DNA of 64,000 nucleotides, from NCBI GenBank assembly GCA_965197475.1, contig CBDANF010000003.1:1056001-1120000 (forward strand), given 5' to 3'. The position numbers were made by a program, and so were the translations under genes. The notes beneath the pieces are model-generated. The model made no database searches and had not been told where the DNA came from. It saw nothing but the letters and a program-made list of their open reading frames with translations. This stretch comes from Candidatus Poribacteria bacterium (GTDB lineage Bacteria > Poribacteria > WGA-4E > WGA-3G). Shown here one piece after another: positions 11,716-41,916 of the stretch (positions within the stretch are counted from its first letter, which is position 1; every line of letters begins with the position of its first letter).

Positions 11716-12435
11716 ATGCCTAAAAACCTTCAATTCTTCATCACGCTATTACTCATATTTATATTAACACCATTGCTTCATGCTGCGCCGTTAAAAACGC
11801 TTTCCTTAGATTTTAAGCGCGAATTAACTGAAAACGGCAAAACAGAACACATCGCAGGTATACTTCACTACGATGTCAAAGCTGCGCGAGTTGTCGTTGA
11901 GGTTACCAAACCGGTCAAGCAAATAATAGTCGTGAAGAACAATGTGTTAGAGATTTACTATCCTGTGGAGAAACAAGCGTTCCGTTTTATCTCTGAAGGA
12001 CGGATTCCACTTCCGTTTGTCGAATCCATCATTCAGACCACACAAGCGGAGTACGGATTGACTGCAATTGGATATACGCTTGGTCAGCACGATGTCGTTG
12101 ACAAAGTGCTTTATACCTATTGGAAACCACCTGAAAAAGCCAAAGAACAGCTCGGAACTATCATCCTGGGGATGCGCGATGACAAGCTCATCTCTGCCGA
12201 AGTTAAGAACCCTAAAGGACATATTATCGCAAGATCTTTGTATCAGAACCACAGCAAATTCGGTATTAACTATATCCCAATGGAAATTACATCCAGTACG
12301 TATGGCACGAAATCTGAGGTTCTCCAACATGAAAAAATTGTCTATAGCAACCCACACGTGAACGTTGAACCACTAAATCCAATTTTTAATTTCACAATAC
12401 CGGAATCAGTAGAGGTGAAGGAAATCAAATGGTAA
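11716..12435 (+). CDS. Exported LolA-fold-like protein (tentative)
   Basis: Signal peptide; beta-rich, KPVKQIIVV..LEIYYPVEKQA and FNFTIPESVEV end resemble LolA. Confidence 0.5.
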   Translation: MPKNLQFFITLLLIFILTPLLHAAPLKTLSLDFKRELTENGKTEHIAGILHYDVKAARVVVEVTKPVKQIIVVKNNVLEIYYPVEKQAFRFISEGRIPLPFVESIIQTTQAEYGLTAIGYTLGQHDVVDKVLYTYWKPPEKAKEQLGTIILGMRDDKLISAEVKNPKGHIIARSLYQNHSKFGINYIPMEITSSTYGTKSEVLQHEKIVYSNPHVNVEPLNPIFNFTIPESVEVKEIKW

Positions 12436-12869
12436 ATTATACTGTCTTTCGTAATAAATTTATGTTTTTCTGTACTATCTGTTTAACCGTTGTTATCCTC
12501 TCCACATCTTCCTACGCAGATGAAGCCACTGATCTCGCCTTTATCCGTGAAGTTAATCCCATCACAAAGGAAAAACGAGAAGAAGTTATCCGATTTAATC
12601 CACAGGAAACCTCAGAGTTGAAATTCGCCGCTACGGGATTGATTCGTCTGTATCAAAAATTCATCTCCAGCCAAGATGGACCAACCTGCAATTTTACACC
12701 CACCTGTTCACGTTTCGGTATGGCATGTATACAGGAATACGGCATATTGCGCGGCATACTCCTCACCGCAGACAGACTCCTCCGATGTAACGGTTCGCAA
12801 TCAACGCTCTACCATAAAGACACAAGGACAAGCAAGTACATAGACCCAATTTCAAATTATGCGAAATAA
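12429..12869 (+). CDS. yidD: Membrane protein insertion efficiency factor YidD-like
   Basis: IRLYQKFISSQDGPTCNFTPTCSRF...RLLRCN. Confidence 0.8.
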   Translation: MVNYTVFRNKFMFFCTICLTVVILSTSSYADEATDLAFIREVNPITKEKREEVIRFNPQETSELKFAATGLIRLYQKFISSQDGPTCNFTPTCSRFGMACIQEYGILRGILLTADRLLRCNGSQSTLYHKDTRTSKYIDPISNYAK

Positions 12870-13743
12870 TAAGATATGCGGATACTTACTCATAATAATC
12901 CTCAATATTGCGTTCCTATCCGTTGTCAATGCCGAAGAGTCGATAGACTACTACAGTCCTGAAAACGTCCTCAAATTTGCCGATTTTCTATATGAGCAGG
13001 GGGACTACCTTCGCGCCGCGGGTGAATATCAACGCTATCTTTTTTATCAACCGCAAGAACGCGAGAAAATTCGTTATAGAATTGCTCTCTGTTTTCGTTT
13101 AGGTGGAAAAACAGAACAAGCAATCCGGACGTTTGAAACGTTTCTGCGGAGTTCTTCGGATAGCAAATTGGCGAGTAGTGCTATTTATCAGATCGGCGTT
13201 TCCTATTTCCTCATGGAACAGTTCGGAAAATCGGCAAAATATCTTGACGTATCGCTACCGCGCATAGTAGATGTTCGATATCGTGCCGAATCGCAACAAC
13301 TGATTGGTCTCTCGTATTTGATGCAAAAACAGTGGCTTGAAGCAGAAAAGATATTCAATGACTTAAAAAAATCGGATGTGTTGGTAATAAGGGAAAAAGC
13401 AGCAGTGTATAGCAAATATGCTGTACAGGGAACGAAACTAACGACTCGTAGCCCGTTTTTAGCAGGTTTTCTGTCTACGGTTGTGCCCGGAGCTGGACGG
13501 CTTTATACCGGCCGTGTCAGCGATGCGCTAACTTCTCTGTTCACCGTAGGTTTAACAGGTTGGCAAGCTTACGACGGTTTTCGTAGAGATGGACTTTCAT
13601 CAGTGAAGGGATGGACACTCAGTACGCTCGGTGGTATCTTCTATCTGGGTAATATTTACGGCTCCGTAATTTCTGCACGGGTCTATAATCGCCACGTAGC
13701 GGAAGAATTTTTGATGACGTTGTCCATAGAGTTCCCATATTGA
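12859..13743 (+). CDS. TPR protein with C-terminal TM2-like membrane hairpin
   Basis: Signal peptide, TPR repeats, SPFLAGFLSTVVPGAGRLYTG. Confidence 0.75.
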   Translation: MRNNKICGYLLIIILNIAFLSVVNAEESIDYYSPENVLKFADFLYEQGDYLRAAGEYQRYLFYQPQEREKIRYRIALCFRLGGKTEQAIRTFETFLRSSSDSKLASSAIYQIGVSYFLMEQFGKSAKYLDVSLPRIVDVRYRAESQQLIGLSYLMQKQWLEAEKIFNDLKKSDVLVIREKAAVYSKYAVQGTKLTTRSPFLAGFLSTVVPGAGRLYTGRVSDALTSLFTVGLTGWQAYDGFRRDGLSSVKGWTLSTLGGIFYLGNIYGSVISARVYNRHVAEEFLMTLSIEFPY

Positions 13744-21373: not shown

Positions 21374-21610
21374 ATGAATACTAAATTTATCGAATGTCAT
21401 CCCTCAATTATGATGGGTAAACCTGTTATTGCTGGCACTCGCATTCCTATTGAGTTAATTTTGGAAAAGTTTGCAGCAGGTGAGACAATTGAGCAATTGC
21501 TTGAGGAATATCCTCGTTTAACTCGCGAAGGCGTGCATGCAGCGTTTTATTTTGCAGCACAAGCTCTTCGTGCCGATGTTGTCTATCCAATCCTTGAAGA
21601 GACTCAATGA
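21374..21610 (+). CDS. DUF433 antitoxin-like protein
   Basis: GKPVIAGTRIPIELIL..GETIEQLLEEYPRL. Confidence 0.9.
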   Translation: MNTKFIECHPSIMMGKPVIAGTRIPIELILEKFAAGETIEQLLEEYPRLTREGVHAAFYFAAQALRADVVYPILEETQ

Positions 21611-21960
21611 ATTTAGTAGCAGACGAAAGTATTGGTAAGTCAATTGTGGCAGAACTTCGACGCAATGGTCACAACGTATTATACATTGCGAAGTTTGCCC
21701 CAAGTATTGATGATGAAACGGTGCTGTATCAAGCCAACCAAAACCGTGCCCTGCTGCTTACCGAAGATAAAGACTTTGGTGAGCTTGTCTACCGCCAAGG
21801 ACAAGTACACATGGGCATAGTACTTATTCGTCTTGCTGGTTTATCTCCACAAGCAAAAGCAAAAAGCATCTCAACAGTCTTTGCAGATCACGGACACGAA
21901 TTACTGCAAGCTTTTAGCGTTATCTCACCAGGAAGGGTTAGAATTCGTCAACTTCCTTAG
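21607..21960 (+). CDS. DUF5615 PIN-like toxin
   Basis: LVADESI...GHNV...DDETV...LLTEDKDFGEL; ATGA overlap with DUF433. Confidence 0.88.
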   Translation: MNLVADESIGKSIVAELRRNGHNVLYIAKFAPSIDDETVLYQANQNRALLLTEDKDFGELVYRQGQVHMGIVLIRLAGLSPQAKAKSISTVFADHGHELLQAFSVISPGRVRIRQLP

Positions 21961-23329: not shown

Positions 23330-23581
23330 ATGACTAAAATGGTAGGCTATGAACTTGATGAAATTCACAGGATCCGCCGAGAAATCTTTGAGAAGTTCAA
23401 CTAGGATATTGACAAACTAGTAGCGCACTATGAAAAATAAGATGAAGAATTTCAGAAGTCTGGCGGATACAAGTTTGTGGATCCACTACCAGAAAAACCA
23501 ACACCCACGAAAACGGAAAATGGAAAAGCGCAGATTAAGTTTGTGGTTTTACTCAATAACTCGGAAACGTATTTGTTATAA
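23330..23581 (+). pseudogene. Small antitoxin-like gene with two in-frame stops
   Basis: MTKMVGYELDEIHRIRREIFEKFN*DIDKLVAHYEK*... Confidence 0.45.
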
Positions 23582-23661
23582 TATTTGCGTTGATTCGAAA
23601 AAATCCCAATTTATGGATGCGCTTTTGTAAGTGTAATTTGAAAAATGTTAGGAGAATTATA

Positions 23662-23931
23662 ATGCAATACACCGATGATACATCTGAAGTTATCGCCGAG
23701 CACGGTGAAGCACTCTATCAGCAAAAAATACGTGACAAAGTTGAATCAGCATACAAAGGAAAGTTCTTAGCGATTGACATTGAAACGGGTGACTATGCAA
23801 TTGCTGATGAAGATTTGGTAGCTACAGACCGTCTTCTTGCGAAACGTCCTAATGCTACTGTCTATGGTCTACGAATCGGATTTCCCACCGCCTATCGAAT
23901 CGGTTTTAAGATTTCGGTTTCAACACAATGA
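23662..23931 (+). CDS. Small DUF5678-like protein (usually paired with retropepsin-like proteases)
   Basis: GEALYQQKIR..YKGKFLAIDIETGDY...LRIG; AGGAG RBS. Confidence 0.6.
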   Translation: MQYTDDTSEVIAEHGEALYQQKIRDKVESAYKGKFLAIDIETGDYAIADEDLVATDRLLAKRPNATVYGLRIGFPTAYRIGFKISVSTQ

Positions 23932-24286
23932 TTTTAGGGAAAATCACAGAGAATCAAGAAGCTATCATTGAATTGGAAGTTGTTGACTCAAATTGGCAGG
24001 AGAAAATTAAAGTTGCCATTGACATAGGCTTTGATGGTTATTTGACACTACCTCTTAATTTAATAAACCGTCTTAAGCTCCGACGGACTGGGCATAGACA
24101 AGCGATGGGAATATGGTAGTCTTTGAGTTGTACCGTGCGAATGTGTTATGGCATGGCACAGAACTCGAAGTGCCTGTTCTGCGTACAGACGGTGGGCCGT
24201 TAGTTGGAATGGCACTGTAAAACGGAAATCGTGTTACATTAGATGTTATAAAAGATGGAGATGTCAAGATTGAAGTTTTGACCTAA
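23928..24286 (+). pseudogene. Clan AA (retropepsin-like) aspartic protease pseudogene
   Basis: IDIGFDGYLTLP (degenerate DTG) then a frame change to DGNMVVFELY...PLVGMAL*. Confidence 0.7.
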
Positions 24287-24417
24287 GTTGTAACGAAGAT
24301 CGCATCTGGTTAGCGAATCTACCACGAGAAAAGCCAGAACTCACGAAAACGGTAGACGAAAAATCAGAAAATTAATTTGTGAATTTTCCGTTTCAGGAAA
24401 CTGTAGCTAAAACTATA

Positions 24418-26481
24418 ATGTCAAAACTTTTAGACGGATTAAACCCTTTACAACGAGAAGCTGTTACACATAAATTAGGTCCCCTCTTAATTATTGCAGG
24501 ACCCGGATCAGGTAAAACGCGGACAGTTGTTCATTCTATCGCTTACGCCATAGAAAATGGGGTGATGCCTGAATGGATTTTGGCGTTTAGTTTCACCGTG
24601 AAAGCTTGTAAGGAGTTGAGAAATCGAGTAAAAGAAATTGTGGGAAAAGAAAAAGGAGATATCGTTAATATATCTACATTTCATAGTCTCTGTCGGCAGG
24701 TTTTAAAAGAAGATATTGATAGACTCAATAGAAGTTACGTACGGGATTTTAAATCATTAGACGAAAATGGTCAGATAAAAATTGTTAAACAGTTAACGCG
24801 CACTAATGAACAGCGGGTGCGCGCCGAGATTGAGTATATACAATCTCATGAATTTCCTAATCCTGGCGAGATTCTTAATTTTACAAAAAAATGCAAAGCG
24901 AGAGAAATTAGTCCATCGGATGCTGCTCCTCATGCCCCTGAGCTTCACATGTCGGAGGTTTATGTAGAGATTTACGAACTTTATGAACAGCGTCTTCAGT
25001 ATGAGGGATGGATTGATTACGAGAGCCAGCAGATTTTCACTAATGAACTTTTTAGAAATGTCCCAGAAGTTAAGACTAAATGGCAAAATAGGTTTAAACT
25101 TATTTTCGTTGATGAATACCAAGACACTGACCCTATTCAATATCGAATTGTAAAAACTCTGGCAGAATCCCATCAGAATTTGCGGGTTGTTGGTGATGAT
25201 GACCAAGGGATTTACGGATGGCGGGGAGCTGACATCCAAAATATATTAAACTTTGAGAAAGACTATCAGCACGCTAAGGTAATTTCGCTCGGACAAAACT
25301 ATCGTTCGACAAAGAACATAGTTGCGGCATCCCGTGCTTTAGCGGACTTTAATCCAGATAGGCGAGATAAAGAACTGTTTACGCGGAACTTTGAAGGTAA
25401 GAAAGTAAAACACCTCCACTGTGAAAGTGATGAAGAAGAAGCTTCTACTATTGCGACCTTTGTCCATCGTGCTATTGATCAAGGCGGTCAATCTCCAAGC
25501 GATTTTGCTGTGCTATACCGCACCAAAAAACAAGCAGACGTTTTTAAAAACGCTTTCAAAGAGTTAGGAATTCGGTATCATATAGTTCCGGACTCTTCAG
25601 ATACGAACACAACTGGTGTATCTATGCTGACAATCCATAAATCCAAAGGTTTGGAATTTCCTAACGTGTTTGTTGTAGGTATATGTGAAGAGTTATTACC
25701 CCATTATTACAGTAGGGATGAAAAAGATTGGGATGAGGAACTCCGACTACTTTACGTGGCGATGACTCGAGCGAAAAACTGGTTATGTTTATCTTCTTAT
25801 GAAAAAGACGGGTACAAACAGCGCGGACAATCCCCATTCTTGAAACGCAAGTACATCCCAGCAAACCTTCTTGAATCCATATCAACGCTACAGGATACCC
25901 AGATACCACCAGCACCTGAGGAGATGAACGCTCCTCAGGAACCATTCAACTATATTGAGCCGCTTCCTGAGCAACTACTTGGGGATGGCATGACTGTCAT
26001 CGGCGTTGACCCTGGAAATATTGGTACTCGGAATACAAATGTAGGTTGGTCAGTTACGCAAAAAACCTCTGATGGATATTCTGTTCTTCGCTTTGGCACT
26101 GAGAGACCTACAGGAACTCCAGAAAACAAACTTAGACAGATAGAACGGAAAATAAATGCGTTGATACAGTCCCCATCAAATCGACCGTATGCTATTGCAG
26201 TTGAGAAACTTGAAGTTGCAACAGAGGAAGCGAGAAGGGAATGGTTCTTGTATGTCGCGGCGTGTGTAGCAACTGTAAGAAGTATCGCTGACAAGGAGGG
26301 CATAGAATGTCGATCTATACGCCGCAGCACGTTAAATATGCTGCTACGGACAATAGAAAGGCATCTAAGGAAGATGTCCAGAAGGCTGTCAAGCGAATGT
26401 GTAACCTCCAGCAAATTCCAGAACCACATCATTCTGCGGATGCAATCGCGACAAGTCTTTGCTACCTCAGAAGTTATCTAA
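24418..26481 (+). CDS. UvrD/PcrA-like SF1 helicase (no 2B subdomain) fused to the N-terminal half of a RuvC-like nuclease
   Basis: LNPLQ, AGPGSGKT, VDEYQD, VGDDDQGIYGWRGA, QNYRS, TIHKSKGLEF, EELRLLYVAMTRAK; then VIGVDPG...GWSV...AIAVEK. Confidence 0.9.
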   Translation: MSKLLDGLNPLQREAVTHKLGPLLIIAGPGSGKTRTVVHSIAYAIENGVMPEWILAFSFTVKACKELRNRVKEIVGKEKGDIVNISTFHSLCRQVLKEDIDRLNRSYVRDFKSLDENGQIKIVKQLTRTNEQRVRAEIEYIQSHEFPNPGEILNFTKKCKAREISPSDAAPHAPELHMSEVYVEIYELYEQRLQYEGWIDYESQQIFTNELFRNVPEVKTKWQNRFKLIFVDEYQDTDPIQYRIVKTLAESHQNLRVVGDDDQGIYGWRGADIQNILNFEKDYQHAKVISLGQNYRSTKNIVAASRALADFNPDRRDKELFTRNFEGKKVKHLHCESDEEEASTIATFVHRAIDQGGQSPSDFAVLYRTKKQADVFKNAFKELGIRYHIVPDSSDTNTTGVSMLTIHKSKGLEFPNVFVVGICEELLPHYYSRDEKDWDEELRLLYVAMTRAKNWLCLSSYEKDGYKQRGQSPFLKRKYIPANLLESISTLQDTQIPPAPEEMNAPQEPFNYIEPLPEQLLGDGMTVIGVDPGNIGTRNTNVGWSVTQKTSDGYSVLRFGTERPTGTPENKLRQIERKINALIQSPSNRPYAIAVEKLEVATEEARREWFLYVAACVATVRSIADKEGIECRSIRRSTLNMLLRTIERHLRKMSRRLSSECVTSSKFQNHIILRMQSRQVFATSEVI

Positions 26482-28220
26482 ACTCTTCCCGCTTTGAAGG
26501 CAATAAACGAAAAATGGAACGGTATGAAACGGGTTGTGATTACATAGACAAAAGACAATTTGATGCAGCAATTGATGAATTCATGGAAACACTATACATA
26601 GATCCTATTTATACAGATGCGTACGTCGGCAAGGGTCGTGTACACCTTGCACAAAACAATATTGAAGCAGCAGAAAACACAGCTGAAAAAGCCTTAAGAC
26701 TTACAGATAATTTTCATCCAGATTCACAGAAGCTATTGAATGCTATAAGAAAATACCACTCTGGCTGTAGTTCCTTGAAAAATAGCGAATGGAATATTGC
26801 GATAGACAACTTCAAGGAATCTATAAACCAAGAACCTATTTTTACTGAAGCACACTGTGGACTCAGTCAGGCATACCTTAATGTAGGTAATCTGGAAGTT
26901 GCCAGAAATGCAGCCGAAGAAGCCTTAAGACTCATAAATGACTATCAACCTGCCCGGGAACTTTTGGTTGAGATAAAAATGAGACATTACAACAATGGCA
27001 AGATTTGCTTCAATCGTGAAGAATATCAACAAGCAATATTTGAATTTCATAATGCAGTGGATATTGACCAAGATTTTAAGGGTGCTCATCGGTTCATTGG
27101 TGAGGTATATTTGAAATTGGTTGAACTTGATAAAGCAGAAAAAAGCGTAAGGGAAGCATTACGGATTGATTCTACCTATCAACAAGCCCATGAACTTTTA
27201 AAAAAAATTAAATATAAACACAAAGAGCAAGGAGATGTACATCAGAAAAGAAATGCCTATTCTGATGCAGTAAAATCTTATGAACATGCAATAAGAATTG
27301 ATGATAAATATAGAAATGCCTATAACAGCCTTGGTATTGTTTATAGAAAAATGAAGGAATATAACAAATCAATAAGTGCTTATCAGAAAGCAATAAACAT
27401 TGATGAAAGTTGTCATGTAGTCAATACTAATCTCAGCATTGTTTATCTCGATATTAGTGAATACTCTAAGGCAGTAAAATCACTAAAACGTGCAATTACG
27501 ATTAAACCCGATTATCAAGTCGCATACTATTACCTAGCTAGTACTTACTTCAAAATGGAAAATCTAACAGAGGCAAGTGAAACAGTGCTTGAGGCTTTAA
27601 GGCTTGATTCCAATGATCCGTTCACTCTTAAACTTGTAATGAATATCCAGGACACTTATTTGAAACAAGGTCAAGATTCTTTTAATCAGGAGAATCTCGC
27701 TGCAGCAGAAAATGAAGCACGGAAGGCATTACGACTTGATCCAAACTATGAGCATGCAACCTGTCTTATGGTCTCTATAAAAGAAGAATATTATAGGCGT
27801 GGTTCAACATCTCTTAAACAGAACGAATGGATACCAGCAGAAACATGTGCAAAAGAAGCATTGAGAATTGACCCAAACTATCAACTTGCATCTGACCTCT
27901 TAAAACAAACGTATTATGAACAAGGCGTTAATCATATAAAAAACAACAGATATGTAGAAGGTATAAACATACTTCAAAAAGCAAACAATATCAGGACAAA
28001 TTGTGAAAAAACGTACTATAATCTTGGATGGGCTTACTACAAACTGAGCAGATTGAAAGAAGCACAGCTATCGGTCAAACAAGCATTATCAATTGAACCA
28101 AATTATCTTCAGGCCAATGCACTTCTGTCTGAGATAAATCATCCCCGCAATTGGTTGAAATTAGGAGTGGCAAATGTGCGACATTTTACCCGTAGGATAT
28201 TAAAACTGAATCAGGATTGA
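26307..28220 (+). CDS. C-terminal half of RuvC-like domain plus long TPR array
   Basis: YTPQHVK.AATDNRKASKEDVQ..V...PEPHHSADAIA followed by many TPR repeats (AYNSLGIVY, ALRIDPNY). Confidence 0.85.
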   Translation: MSIYTPQHVKYAATDNRKASKEDVQKAVKRMCNLQQIPEPHHSADAIATSLCYLRSYLNSSRFEGNKRKMERYETGCDYIDKRQFDAAIDEFMETLYIDPIYTDAYVGKGRVHLAQNNIEAAENTAEKALRLTDNFHPDSQKLLNAIRKYHSGCSSLKNSEWNIAIDNFKESINQEPIFTEAHCGLSQAYLNVGNLEVARNAAEEALRLINDYQPARELLVEIKMRHYNNGKICFNREEYQQAIFEFHNAVDIDQDFKGAHRFIGEVYLKLVELDKAEKSVREALRIDSTYQQAHELLKKIKYKHKEQGDVHQKRNAYSDAVKSYEHAIRIDDKYRNAYNSLGIVYRKMKEYNKSISAYQKAINIDESCHVVNTNLSIVYLDISEYSKAVKSLKRAITIKPDYQVAYYYLASTYFKMENLTEASETVLEALRLDSNDPFTLKLVMNIQDTYLKQGQDSFNQENLAAAENEARKALRLDPNYEHATCLMVSIKEEYYRRGSTSLKQNEWIPAETCAKEALRIDPNYQLASDLLKQTYYEQGVNHIKNNRYVEGINILQKANNIRTNCEKTYYNLGWAYYKLSRLKEAQLSVKQALSIEPNYLQANALLSEINHPRNWLKLGVANVRHFTRRILKLNQD

Positions 28221-35022: not shown

Positions 35023-35149
35023 GGGTATGTAAAGTTTTGACATTAAGCACGTAAAGTATTGTAGGTTTGGGTAGAGCGAAGCGAAACCCAACAAAAATCC
35101 GAGAAATCCGCATAATCCAAGATTCAGATGTCAAAAACTTCACACACCT
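35023..35149. mobile_element. MITE carrying a REP and AATCC repeats
   Basis: Imperfect TIR GGGTATGTAAAGTTTTGACA / TGTCAAAAACTTCACACACC, related to the ends of 44088-44320; REP at 35061. Confidence 0.6.
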
Positions 35150-36768
35150 TACCGCGGTTCAAGCACAACACATGGCAGGATCATCTCTTCAAATGAAATT
35201 CCGCCGTGTTGGAAACTGCCCTGAAACATCTCTCTATAGACATTAAACTGGTTCTCGTATATAAAATAGTAATCCTCTTTAGCAAGGGTGTAGTTCTTTT
35301 CTGCTGTGCTGTATGGTAATCGGTATGCTTCTGGATTATTTATGAGCAAACCTGCTTCAGGGGCACATGAGATGTCTCTGCCCTCTTTTGTTCGGAGTCC
35401 GCTTGAGAGTTCGTGCGGGCTCGAAATTTTCGCTGCGTTTTGACAGAGTACTGAACCGTGATCCGATGTTATTATTATAGTTATACCACGTTCGGCTGCA
35501 AGACTAATTATCTTATAGAGTCGTGAATTTTGAAACCACATTTGGACAAGCGTGCGAAACGCTTCTTCATCTGGAATGAGTTGCTGAAATAGGGGCACCT
35601 CGCTTCGTTGGTGCGTCAACATGTCAAGAAAATCAACAACTACTGCTGCAAAACTAATCCGGTTTGCGTCAGTTAACCATTGTAGATATTGAATCTCACC
35701 CCGCTCATCAAAAATTTTGAAGTAATGGGGTGATGGTTTTAGCGCGATGCCATGCCGCTCAAGTTGTAAACGCATGAGTTCCTTCTCGTGGCGGTTGATA
35801 CTCGTGTGTTCCTCATCCGGTTCAGCGTATAGATCAGGGTATCGTTCAGCCAAATCCCTCGGAAACAGACCGCTAAAAATAGCATTCCGAGCATAACGGG
35901 TTGTCGTTGGCAGAATAGAATAGTAATAGTGCTTTGTCATGTGGAAATCACGGTAGAGCAGCGGTTCAATTTTAAACCAATGATCCAATCGCATACAATC
36001 CATTACCACAAATAGCACGGATTTTCCCACTTGTATCTCTGGAATGACATATTTATAAAAAACATCCACAGATAAAGTCGGCGAGTCTCCACCCTCAAGC
36101 CATAGACTATAGGTGTTTTGAATGTAGTCAGCAAAAGCTGAATTGGCTTCACGTTTTTCACGGGCATGGATAGTTTTAAGCTCGTCCACGTTAGAAAGAC
36201 CATCAAATTTGATATCCCATTCTATGAAATGGATATAAGTATCTATCCATGCTTGCCAATCGTTATCATGATAAGCATCTATCGGTGTATGTGCCTGACT
36301 GTGTTCCAACGCGTATTGCTTATTAAAGTTCTTAACGTACGCTTGTGGCGTATATGCCTCTCGCATCATCTGCTTTTCAAGTAAAAATGCAAGTGATGAA
36401 ACCAACTGTCTGGGATTTGTAGGCATTATCAAGACATCACCGACACCATGAAGACTCGCTTGCGTCATAATCTCTTGTCCACTTGCCTTTGTGAGCAAAA
36501 TCATTGGAATGTGTGCATCCTCTTTACGGATACGTGCAAGCAGGTCGCCATTTCGCGTTGGTGCTTCATAATTTAATAATATAGCGTGGAAAGTCTCATC
36601 TCTGAGTAAAACGATACCCTCTACACCGCTATCTGCTAATGAGACATCATACCCGTGATACTCTAAAAATTGAACATAAGGCTTCAACTCAGACTTCAAA
36701 TATGGGCTTGCAAGCGGTGCTTCTAATGCACTATCAATCCACAGAATTCTCTGTCTTGTTTTTTTCAT
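35149..36768 (-). CDS. PorX-like receiver + PglZ (alkaline phosphatase superfamily) protein
   Basis: ILWID receiver start; DCMRLD, SILPTTTRYARNAIFSG, DMLTH, TSDHG, FQHGGIS. Confidence 0.85.
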   Translation of the reverse strand: MKKTRQRILWIDSALEAPLASPYLKSELKPYVQFLEYHGYDVSLADSGVEGIVLLRDETFHAILLNYEAPTRNGDLLARIRKEDAHIPMILLTKASGQEIMTQASLHGVGDVLIMPTNPRQLVSSLAFLLEKQMMREAYTPQAYVKNFNKQYALEHSQAHTPIDAYHDNDWQAWIDTYIHFIEWDIKFDGLSNVDELKTIHAREKREANSAFADYIQNTYSLWLEGGDSPTLSVDVFYKYVIPEIQVGKSVLFVVMDCMRLDHWFKIEPLLYRDFHMTKHYYYSILPTTTRYARNAIFSGLFPRDLAERYPDLYAEPDEEHTSINRHEKELMRLQLERHGIALKPSPHYFKIFDERGEIQYLQWLTDANRISFAAVVVDFLDMLTHQRSEVPLFQQLIPDEEAFRTLVQMWFQNSRLYKIISLAAERGITIIITSDHGSVLCQNAAKISSPHELSSGLRTKEGRDISCAPEAGLLINNPEAYRLPYSTAEKNYTLAKEDYYFIYENQFNVYREMFQGSFQHGGISFEEMILPCVVLEPR

Positions 36769-40472: not shown

Positions 40473-41916
40473 CTATTCCTTATCCTCTTCTGGATAGTCA
40501 ATTGACCATTTGCCGCGTCCGTCTCCTGTAGGCGATTCTTGCCAAAGTGCTAAGAAATTTTCTGGCGCGTTATGTTCCAAAAGGTGCGTCATAAAGAGTT
40601 GATGCAATTCGGTGACAAGTGCAGCGTTGTCCTCAGAAAGATTATTGATTGCGATTGGGTCTACTGTCAAGTCAAACAACTCAGGCGTGCCGTGTGCCCC
40701 AACAGGAGCATATCCCCAACGTTCTGTAACGAGGAAAGGCGTTGTTGCTCGCCGCGGCACAGTGCCGTTGCGTGAACCGATATGAGTTCCTGTAACCGCA
40801 TACTCTCTGTGCTGTGAATCTCCACTACGAAGTGCATCTGCAAAAGAACGTCCATCAAAAGGTTTAGGCGGATCAAGCGTGATACCCGCCAAATCACACA
40901 ACGTTGGTAGAATGTCCATCGGTTGTGCAATCATGTCAAGACGTTGTCCTTGTGGCACATCTCCGCCAGCAATCAAAAACATCTCATGGTTAATCTCAGG
41001 ATAAGTCGGCCAATACCGCGGGTCTTCAGGGTCAATGTTAGATTTCCCTGTCCTATCGTGTTCTCCAATGGACATCCCGTGGTCAGACATCACAACAACA
41101 AGTGTATCATCCCAAAGTTCAAGGTCCTCAACCTTTTCAAGGTACGTCCGATGTGCCGATCAACCATCTCCGATTCGCCAGCGTAGTGTGCCCACAAGTT
41201 ATGTAACTCAGCATCAGTATAGATAGACGACCGTCCATAGTTTGGATGTAGCATCGGCGGTCCAGAATAGTCAGGATCGTAGCGTTTAACGATATACTCA
41301 GGCGGATCCCACGGTTCGTGCGGATCAAAGAAATCAACCCAAAGGAAGAAGGGGCCAGAACGATAGTTTTCCTCTAAAAATCGTATTGAAGTTTGTGATG
41401 TTCTACCGGAAAACGTCTCTGCCTCGTATTGATAGTATCGGTTTGTCCAACGGTGGGTATTGGGCAAGGTGTTACCTCGGAAGGATTTGGACGCGTTTTC
41501 TCATCCGGCATGATAGTCTGTATTTCGTCATTGAGATGGAGCAGCGGTTTATCACCCTCTTGCCCACGGTGTTGAAAAGCAGCTTGAAATCCTTGCTGGA
41601 ACCGGGCATTGAACAGATGCGGACAATCGCAAATGAGCTGCGTGGCATATCCCTTCCCACCTAACAGTTTAGCGATATGGTTTGGACCGCTCAGATCAAT
41701 CGCCTGCCAGCCGTAGTGCGGCCATCCCACTGTGCCGGTCGCAACATCGGTTCGATGCGGAATAGTCGGAAAACTGCTCATATAGAATTTGTCAATAGCA
41801 GTTGCGCGTTCTGCCTCAAACTTATCAAACATCGGTGTCCGTATAGGTTTTTCAGCCCGTTCACCGAGATTGTCATAGCGGAACGTGTCTGTAATTAATA
41901 AAACAATATTCTTCAT
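40473..41916 (-). CDS. Sulfatase-family hydrolase split by two 1-nt frameshifts
   Basis: NIVLLITDTFR, PTIPHR, FDPHEPWDPP, MSDHG, DILPTL; breaks near 41481 (TT) and 41141 (CC). Confidence 0.8.

Follow-up and report, generated by a model that had tools for sequence, protein, structure and literature searches.

The stretch of DNA analyzed here, called the window throughout, comprises 64,000 nucleotides (nt) of the genome of a Candidatus Poribacteria bacterium (assembly GCA_965197475.1, contig CBDANF010000003.1, positions 1,056,001–1,120,000 of the forward strand), and all positions given below are those of the window. On its plus strand, which carries all the features of the locus described here, lie two long open reading frames (ORFs) that overlap by 175 nt in different frames. 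ORF1 (24379–26481, 700 amino acids (aa), with a GTG at 24379) encodes a UvrD/PcrA-type helicase that ends in the N-terminal half of a RuvC domain, and ORF2 (26307–28220, 637 aa) encodes the C-terminal half of that domain followed by tetratricopeptide repeats (TPRs). The ATG at 24418 is the likely true start of ORF1, since relatives align from residue 14. An initial annotation of this locus had proposed a helicase-nuclease whose split active site assembles upon activation. Our analysis makes it very likely that the locus is instead a freshly frameshifted allele of one gene and not a two-part system, and in the collections searched the intact gene is confined to the phylum.

The superfamily 1A (SF1A) helicase core of ORF1 (24418–25803) consists of domains 1A, 1B and 2A without a 2B, as delineated by Pfam, the alignment to PcrA and the positions of the motifs. 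UvrD-helicase is matched over the whole of its profile (1–271 of 271, residues 21–297, E 6.4e-79, 265.9 bits) and UvrD_C follows up to residue 475 (7.6e-42, 144.4 bits). The helicase motifs read from the translation are intact (Walker A GPGSGKT, DEYQD, VGDDDQ, QNYRS, TIHKSKGLEF and VAMTRAK), and the best solved relative is PcrA (1pjr; phmmer, E 5e-92). In the ortholog from genome G008 (G numbers denote other Poribacteria genomes, G000 being the window's own, and L numbers denote fetched loci), residues 20–398 align to PcrA 8–383 and residues 402–491 to PcrA 554–649. As only about three residues of the query lie between these blocks, PcrA 384–553, which is the 2B subdomain, has no counterpart, and the family helicase departs from the four-subdomain layout seen in the alignment to 1pjr. 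In Rep, UvrD and PcrA this subdomain is regulatory and auto-inhibitory, and engineered Rep without 2B is a more active helicase. The protein resembles PcrA, UvrD and Rep in having all helicase motifs, both Pfam domains and an alignment over 1A, 1B and 2A, whereas it differs in the missing 2B and in carrying RuvC and TPRs in place of their C-terminus.

A Pro-rich linker (25804–25983, with IPPAPEE at 25903–25923), which the alignment reveals to be poorly conserved and of varying length, leads from the helicase into the RuvC domain. The N-terminal half of the domain lies in the ORF1 frame (25984–26313, ending at Arg645 in GIECR) and is defined by a weak match to NF000711 (positions 1–69 of 161 at residues 538–611, E 0.0011, 18.9 bits) and by its alignment with fused relatives and the RuvC of the genome itself. 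It contains the catalytic Asp (D544 in GVDPG, nt 26008) and Glu (E609 in AVEK, nt 26203). The C-terminal half lies in the ORF2 frame (26314–26483), where residues 2–52 correspond to positions 97–147 of 148 of Pfam RuvC (PF02075; 39.7 bits, cut-off 22.2) and include YTPQHVK, the catalytic His and Asp of HHSADA (H42, nt 26430, and D45, nt 26439) and a conserved helix, SLCYLRSYLN. All four RuvC catalytic residues are encoded in the window, divided between the two frames. Beyond the break ORF1 continues for a 55-residue tail (SIRRSTLN..., 26314–26481) up to its stop, which has no homology of its own; over the same stretch tblastn finds the match of the relatives in the other frame. The TPR array (26484–28220, about 570 aa, Pfam TPR_2, TPR_1, TPR_8 and others) varies in length among relatives and is AT-rich, with a GC content of 0.33–0.37 (26800–28200) versus 0.42–0.47 in the flanks. 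These elements had been read correctly in the initial annotation, which described the helicase motifs, the linker and the GVDPG/AVEK strands of ORF1 (Pfam and NF000711 agree), the RuvC C-terminal half and TPRs of ORF2, the four catalytic positions of the fused gene and the higher AT content of the TPR part.

The break between the two frames was located by blastn of positions 26201–26420 against the closest ortholog, that of G008 (93% identical over 221 nt). The alignment contains exactly one gap, after 26313, where the window reads CGA-TCT and G008 has CGACTCT, the missing base being a C. The restored codons CGA-CTC-TAT encode Arg-Leu-Tyr, as in all family members aligned. The 1-nt deletion that splits the gene lies at 26313–26314, and the C is present in relatives and in a sister sample (see below). 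The earlier suggestion that one base added at about 26313 fuses the ORFs was exact in its position and in its outcome, a single UvrD-RuvC-TPR gene, but the base is C and not the A that had been proposed.

In the relatives the gene is continuous across this point. When 40 related genomes were searched with the linker and RuvC N-terminal half, matches came up at six places, which belong to five genomes of the window's genus. Five of these places lie within open frames of 1249–1294 aa and the sixth, in G001, within a frame of 800 aa; those loci that were fetched are single genes of 1213–1280 codons. We also scanned 176 genomes of the phylum with a profile (A1) that spans the linker, the RuvC domain and the first TPR. 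Full-length, stop-free matches occur at 23 places, in 22 other genomes (open frames of 800–1668 aa); the window's own genome, G000, is the only one with two half matches (1–136 in a 701-aa frame and 120–260 in a 642-aa frame). Likewise, in 119 of the 120 listed clusters at 90% identity a single protein spans 91% or more of the linker-RuvC query, and only the window's own ORF1 does not.

Three public sequencing runs contain the stretch, two from one sample (X1 and X2) and one from another sample of the same study (X3); runs X4–X15 contain only 5–8% of the sampled words. The reads were examined as assembled Logan contigs. X1 and X2 each yield one 2001-base contig over 24510–26510 with a word depth of 11.5 and 13.5, respectively, and since neither differs from the window at any position (0 differences), both carry the deletion. 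In X3 a 2057-base contig over 26295–28300 is identical to the window except for one C inserted behind 26313, and a second contig breaks off at 26313, where its overhanging end, CTCTATACGCC, corresponds to the same insertion. The same allele therefore exists with and without the base across samples, so that the deletion is a very recent, strain-level mutation. Two points weigh against placing full trust in this comparison: contigs lose rare variants, and X1 and X2 are possibly the source data of the assembly and are therefore not independent proof of the deletion.

The last point bears on the alternative that the missing C is a sequencing or assembly error and that the gene of the organism is intact, which we consider unlikely. 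Single-base indels are the commonest assembly error, the intact form occurs in a sample of the same study, and other long-contig assemblies of the family are also broken. The site, however, is not a homopolymer (CGA[C]TCT), and the Logan contigs of two runs, which may be source data, repeat the deletion at the depths given above, with no contig there containing the C.

A further alternative retains the earlier idea of a designed split enzyme, or of a programmed frameshift by ribosomal −1 slippage, in which the RuvC site is complete only when the two halves meet. It draws on a perfect AAGGAGG (26293–26299) that stands 7 nt ahead of the ATG at 26307–26309, the ATG being in frame with the downstream half, on the retention of all four catalytic residues, and on the deletion form being the one assembled in two runs. 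The AAGGAGG is indeed present, as the initial annotation had pointed out, but it belongs to older coding sequence (26293–26309), in which it reads as Asp-Lys-Glu-Gly, and it is the deletion that brings the ATG in frame with the downstream part. G008 has ACGGAGG at this place and its ATG is out of frame, whereas the X3 contigs match the letters of the window. The resemblance to a ribosome-binding site is therefore a coincidence exposed by the deletion and not a sign of a real split. Further evidence against a designed split comes from the RuvC region, unbroken at all 23 places in the 22 other genomes, from the single-protein coverage in 119 of 120 listed clusters and from the sister sample, in which the same allele has the extra C. 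As to a programmed frameshift, no X-XXY-YYZ slippery heptamer was seen by eye in 26292–26313, the only open overlap, and the relatives have a single frame, the two-frame arrangement not being conserved. We regard this alternative as very improbable and as largely refuted already; the active site that was thought to assemble from two halves on activation is the product of an ordinary mutation.

Breaks elsewhere in the family fall at other points. One species cluster contains a 1175-aa protein, a truncated one of 742 aa and a pair of 696 and 492 aa whose split lies in the first TPR. The 23 helicase-less gene calls that were inspected (of 40 matches) all differ in their N-termini, none of which is at the window's break, although some of these calls may be contig-edge fragments; such truncated calls, starting at many other points, likewise argue against a designed split. 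Taken as a whole, the observations are best explained, with good confidence, by a recently broken, Poribacteria-specific gene of about 1270 codons whose intact product is an accessory helicase-nuclease. The enzyme has most likely lost its function in the window's strain, where ORF1 would yield a helicase that carries only half of the nuclease and ends in 55 nonsense residues, and the ORF2 product would be made only through chance initiation.

The homologs of this gene are fused, with a total length of 1099–1662 aa. Seven representatives analyzed with Pfam contain UvrD-helicase, UvrD_C, RuvC (positions 1–147 of 148, 55.6–72.9 bits, cut-off 22.2) and TPRs, and three of the seven (P0004, P0008 and P0010) have an FGE-sulfatase domain at the C-terminal end; this domain (PF03781) is present in at least 23 of the 120 listed 90%-identity clusters. 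The NCBIfam equivalog models score well below their cut-offs (pcrA 415.4 versus 911.2, rep 355.3 versus 951.45, uvrD 326.4 versus 1144.45 and RuvC 44.4 versus 163). Given these scores, all below the equivalog cut-offs, the missing 2B and the fusion, the protein cannot be counted among the orthologs of PcrA, UvrD, Rep or RuvC; the family is a member of the UvrD-like helicase superfamily that carries a true RuvC-family domain. In the ESM Atlas the nearest large named clusters are short UvrD-like helicases of 451–587 aa, which serves as a lead only; RuvC is not among the three families given in each row, and these rows give no verdict on fusions in small clusters.

The relationship to RuvC is supported by several lines of evidence. 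Intact members match the Pfam family over its full length, and all 19 sequences aligned, 18 fused members and the genome's own RuvC, share the D-E-H-D tetrad without exception (alignment A2, from which G135 and G143 were left out as their end motif was not matched and G116, G119 and G001 as truncated or disrupted). The domain is 29% identical to the genome's own RuvC and carries lineage-specific insertions at two points, behind the first strand and behind the catalytic Glu. An AlphaFold2 model of the G008 RuvC domain (pLDDT 87.1, pTM 0.85) has the strands and helices in the order of RuvC, and the ten best Foldseek matches to this model in the PDB are all RuvC proteins (from Pseudomonas, Deinococcus, Thermus and Escherichia coli; TM 0.74–0.89, r.m.s.d. 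2.0–2.5), so that the region joined across the break does model as a RuvC fold. Both the alignment and the model reveal that the last RuvC helix continues into the conserved motif SLCYLRSYLNSSRF and then into the first TPR. The family domain differs from the canonical resolvase in its insertions and in its setting, being internal to a protein of about 1100–1660 aa whereas canonical RuvC stands alone at about 170 aa (the usual layout being about 160–200 aa), and a separate canonical RuvC is kept in the genome. A prediction of a complex of two copies of the RuvC domain, made with alignment A2, scored 0.02, a value that counts neither for nor against dimerization.

The family comprises 173 clusters at 90% identity, whose members carry automatic names such as 'crossover junction endodeoxyribonuclease RuvC', 'hypothetical protein', 'tetratricopeptide repeat protein' and 'SUMF1/EgtB/PvdO family nonheme iron enzyme, partial'. 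The 15 related loci all come from Candidatus Poribacteria or from an uncultured bacterium, and the six named cluster rows are all Ca. Poribacteria. A 50%-identity library of 1.84 billion proteins contains only about 13 representatives whose match extends through the RuvC half (859.9–294.3 bits), and ordinary PcrA-like helicases in the same library reach 338 bits. Judged from these sequence collections, the family is small, lineage-specific and confined to Poribacteria. The A1 scan detected the gene in 8 of 40 genomes of the window's genus, in 14 of 65 of a sister genus and in 1 of 20 of a third one. G017, G009 and G021 lack it at the syntenic site, where remnants of 183 and 79 codons persist in G020 and G003, respectively. 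In G001 the gene is cut twice by DDE transposases, the same 426-aa gene being inserted into the helicase (L013 8152–9432) and into the TPR array (11940–13220), and the AMP-binding gene is largely missing at this locus. One assembly, G011 (910 contigs, 7% contamination), contains two different full-length members of 1249 and 1280 aa (L015 on contig C466 and L014 on contig C74), which represent either paralogs or the mixing of two strains in one bin.

Purifying selection acts on intact copies, as the ratio of nonsynonymous to synonymous substitution rates (dN/dS) in 11 ortholog pairs is 0.14–0.28 for the helicase and 0.11–0.40 for RuvC. Within a pair the synonymous rate can differ several-fold between the helicase and RuvC (e.g. 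1.37 versus 0.33). Per 50-residue block, the identity of ORF1 to its relatives ranges from 24% to 92% and the best partner shifts along the gene: G005 and G164 match best over residues 51–250, G016 over 351–500, and G008 and G104 over 501–645. The contrast in synonymous rates and the changing best match point to recombination between alleles. The 1B region is just 26–70% identical, and flanking genes are 77–93% identical in genomes in which the helicase part is 59–69% identical.

We compared the protein with known helicase-nuclease systems. RecB, AddA and AdnB share with it a UvrD-like SF1A motor to which a nuclease is tethered C-terminally by a linker, and there are weak AddA and RecB matches at the level of the helicase. 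Their nuclease, however, is of the PD-(D/E)xK RecB type whereas that of the family is RuvC, with an RNase H fold, and the family adds a TPR array; no RecB-nuclease Pfam match is listed for ORF1, ORF2 or the seven relatives, and no AddB- or RecC-like partner gene lies beside the window gene or the same-genus loci. PADLOC matches the helicase part with its GajB and RTasHel models (up to 301.8 bits), both being generic UvrD-helicase matches, and generic TPR matches occur as well. The likeness to GajB of Gabija lies in this model match, but PcrA models score higher and the nuclease is fused and of another fold. No gene for a GajA/OLD-type nuclease or a reverse transcriptase is adjacent at the loci annotated; membership in Gabija or DRT was rejected, as PADLOC matches only the generic helicase and TPRs and the partner gene is absent. 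STAND/Avs-type defense proteins combine an effector nuclease, an NTPase and C-terminal TPR repeats, an order shared by the family, and FGE-sulfatase-like domains are reported to serve as C-terminal sensors in conflict systems of this kind. The NTPase of the family is an SF1 helicase and not a STAND ATPase, and PADLOC found no match to its Avs models. The family is not Gabija, AddAB or a STAND protein, and no known defense system fits it.

The genomic neighborhood is largely metabolic, as the initial annotation had also remarked. At four intact same-genus loci the gene stands between an AMP-binding-enzyme gene and a FAD-oxidoreductase gene, followed by an NMT1_3 gene. FAD-oxidoreductase and NMT1_3 genes lie directly downstream at 14 of 17 further loci, two others differing and one contig being too short. 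The neighbors in the window are radical SAM, AMP-binding, FAD-oxidoreductase and NMT1_3 genes and small ORFs without a Pfam match, and farther downstream there are TPR proteins, DsbD, a PglZ response regulator and others. Other loci have as neighbors an ABC transporter, a HisA/F-like gene (His biosynthesis), dnaN, SDR, aldehyde dehydrogenase, AnmK and NamZ genes, while at the G164 locus a transposase, a 2-oxoglutarate (2OG) oxygenase and an SNF2 helicase adjoin the gene. The PglZ gene of the window (35149–36768) encodes a response-regulator receiver domain fused to PglZ, and no BREX-type genes were seen beside it in the annotated stretch. A 180-aa ORF at 41374–41916 matches only positions 1–122 of 301 of Pfam Sulfatase and is possibly another truncated gene.

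Several small genes lie upstream of the helicase. A DUF433/DUF5615 (PIN_10-like) pair of toxin-antitoxin-like genes (21374–21960) forms an insertion between the radical-SAM (HemN-like) gene and the AMP-binding gene; at this site in relatives, DUF433 alone is found in L010 and L033, both are partly present in L014 and L031, and neither in L011, L012, L032, L034 and L035. A 78-nt direct repeat (71% identical; 23473–23550 and 24309–24386) flanks a cassette of small ORFs, and the GTG at 24379 lies within the second copy. This arrangement suggests the insertion of a small module upstream of the helicase, with duplication of that region. Around the helicase-RuvC-TPR gene itself no target-site duplications or terminal repeats were found, the sole notable repeat being that which flanks the cassette. 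The two small ORFs (23590–23931, 113 aa, and 23928–24119, 63 aa) share an ATGA overlap, are without a match in Pfam or PADLOC and also occur in G021, which does not have the helicase gene. The 63-aa ORF corresponds to residues 1–60 of a 172-aa ORF from G106 (63% identity), which has a D-T-G-like motif, and as only these residues are matched the window's copy looks truncated. In six loci of two genera a conserved gene of 162–167 aa (72–93% identical), absent from the window, stands directly upstream on the same strand (L012 7717–8208, L040 12250–12753, L041 7307–7795, L044 7497–7985, L048 7621–8109 and L050 8360–8848). Neither the 162-aa upstream gene of the six loci nor the 172-aa ORF of G106 has a Pfam match; by eye, the motifs of the former give the impression of a PIN-type toxin and those of the latter of an aspartyl protease.

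We read the intact protein as an accessory helicase-nuclease and not as a housekeeping resolvase, because the genome has a canonical RuvC elsewhere (170.5 bits) and five other UvrD-helicase genes (one in a 735-aa frame), and because the gene is patchy in its distribution and often decayed. We infer that the ATP-driven motor would move 3′→5′ on single-stranded DNA, unwinding it, and would bring a strand or branch point to the tethered RuvC nuclease, which would cut it. The Pro-rich linker may act as a flexible tether between motor and nuclease, and the TPR array, being continuous with the last RuvC helix, as a regulatory or partner-binding module. This mechanism has to contend with canonical RuvC being a homodimer on four-way junctions that works with RuvAB; among the runs listed for 25800–26800 there was none of RNA, a blank and no more. 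The role of such an enzyme would be either action on foreign DNA or the processing of special recombination or fork intermediates.

In the first case the family would form a single-protein anti-phage or anti-plasmid system, in which the TPR (and FGE-like) array senses a cue from the invader and releases the 2B-less helicase and RuvC onto DNA. This is possible, and it is the role that we tentatively favor because of the patchy distribution, repeated decay, mosaicism and variable repeat arrays of the family. The frequent loss of the gene, its mosaic structure with a hypervariable 1B region, the variable number of TPRs with an optional C-terminal FGE-sulfatase, the toxin-antitoxin-like genes that adjoin it in several loci, the transposase and SNF2 helicase next to it at the G164 locus, and the housekeeping RuvC and UvrD-family genes kept elsewhere in the genome are consistent with such a role. 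On the other hand, PADLOC matched no defense-specific model, the gene keeps a stable chromosomal position among metabolic genes in two genera, its neighbors are mostly metabolic or housekeeping genes (including an ABC transporter, His biosynthesis, dnaN and DsbD), and TPR proteins are common in this genome anyway.

In the second case the protein would be a self-contained recombination or fork-repair enzyme, a helicase with its own junction resolvase whose TPRs dock to replisome or repair partners. We keep this role alive, although as a somewhat less likely one, because of the kinship to a true resolvase and the housekeeping context. Its nuclease is close to a real resolvase in sequence (the identity to the genome's own RuvC and the full Pfam match) and in fold, the gene is under purifying selection, and dnaN lies a few genes away in several loci; PcrA, UvrD and Rep motors act at stalled forks. 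Against it, the fused gene is missing from about 87% of the species genomes of the phylum that were searched and has repeatedly been lost or decayed, the genome already has a RuvC, and the rapid mosaic divergence is unusual for a repair enzyme.

In the full-text literature, in which a subscription journal or supplement could hold a description, the UvrD-RuvC-TPR architecture was not found, in agreement with the earlier suggestion that it is undescribed. Nor did we find a description, in the full texts searched, of an SF1A motor to which a RuvC-fold nuclease is fused, or of a PcrA-like motor that naturally lacks 2B and bears such a nuclease. The intact protein is an undescribed design within a known kind, the helicase-nuclease fusion, and its sequences are already public under generic names. 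For annotation, the two ORFs of the window belong in one frameshifted gene record, and members that are automatically named RuvC or tetratricopeptide repeat protein are neither alone. A bolder interpretation, which we put forward as doubtful, is that the family is a new class of one-polypeptide helicase-nuclease in which a de-repressed 2B-less motor and RuvC, gated by a diversifying TPR/FGE sensor, would act against invading DNA. If this were true, it would be the first defense effector made from a housekeeping Holliday-junction resolvase and a natural counterpart of the engineered 2B-deleted 'super-helicases'. Helicase-nuclease fusions such as RecBCD, AddAB and Cas3 are central to DNA repair and immunity. 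Limited to uncultivated sponge symbionts, selected where intact and yet repeatedly lost, the family is therefore both a tractable candidate for biochemistry and a marker of strain-level gene decay.

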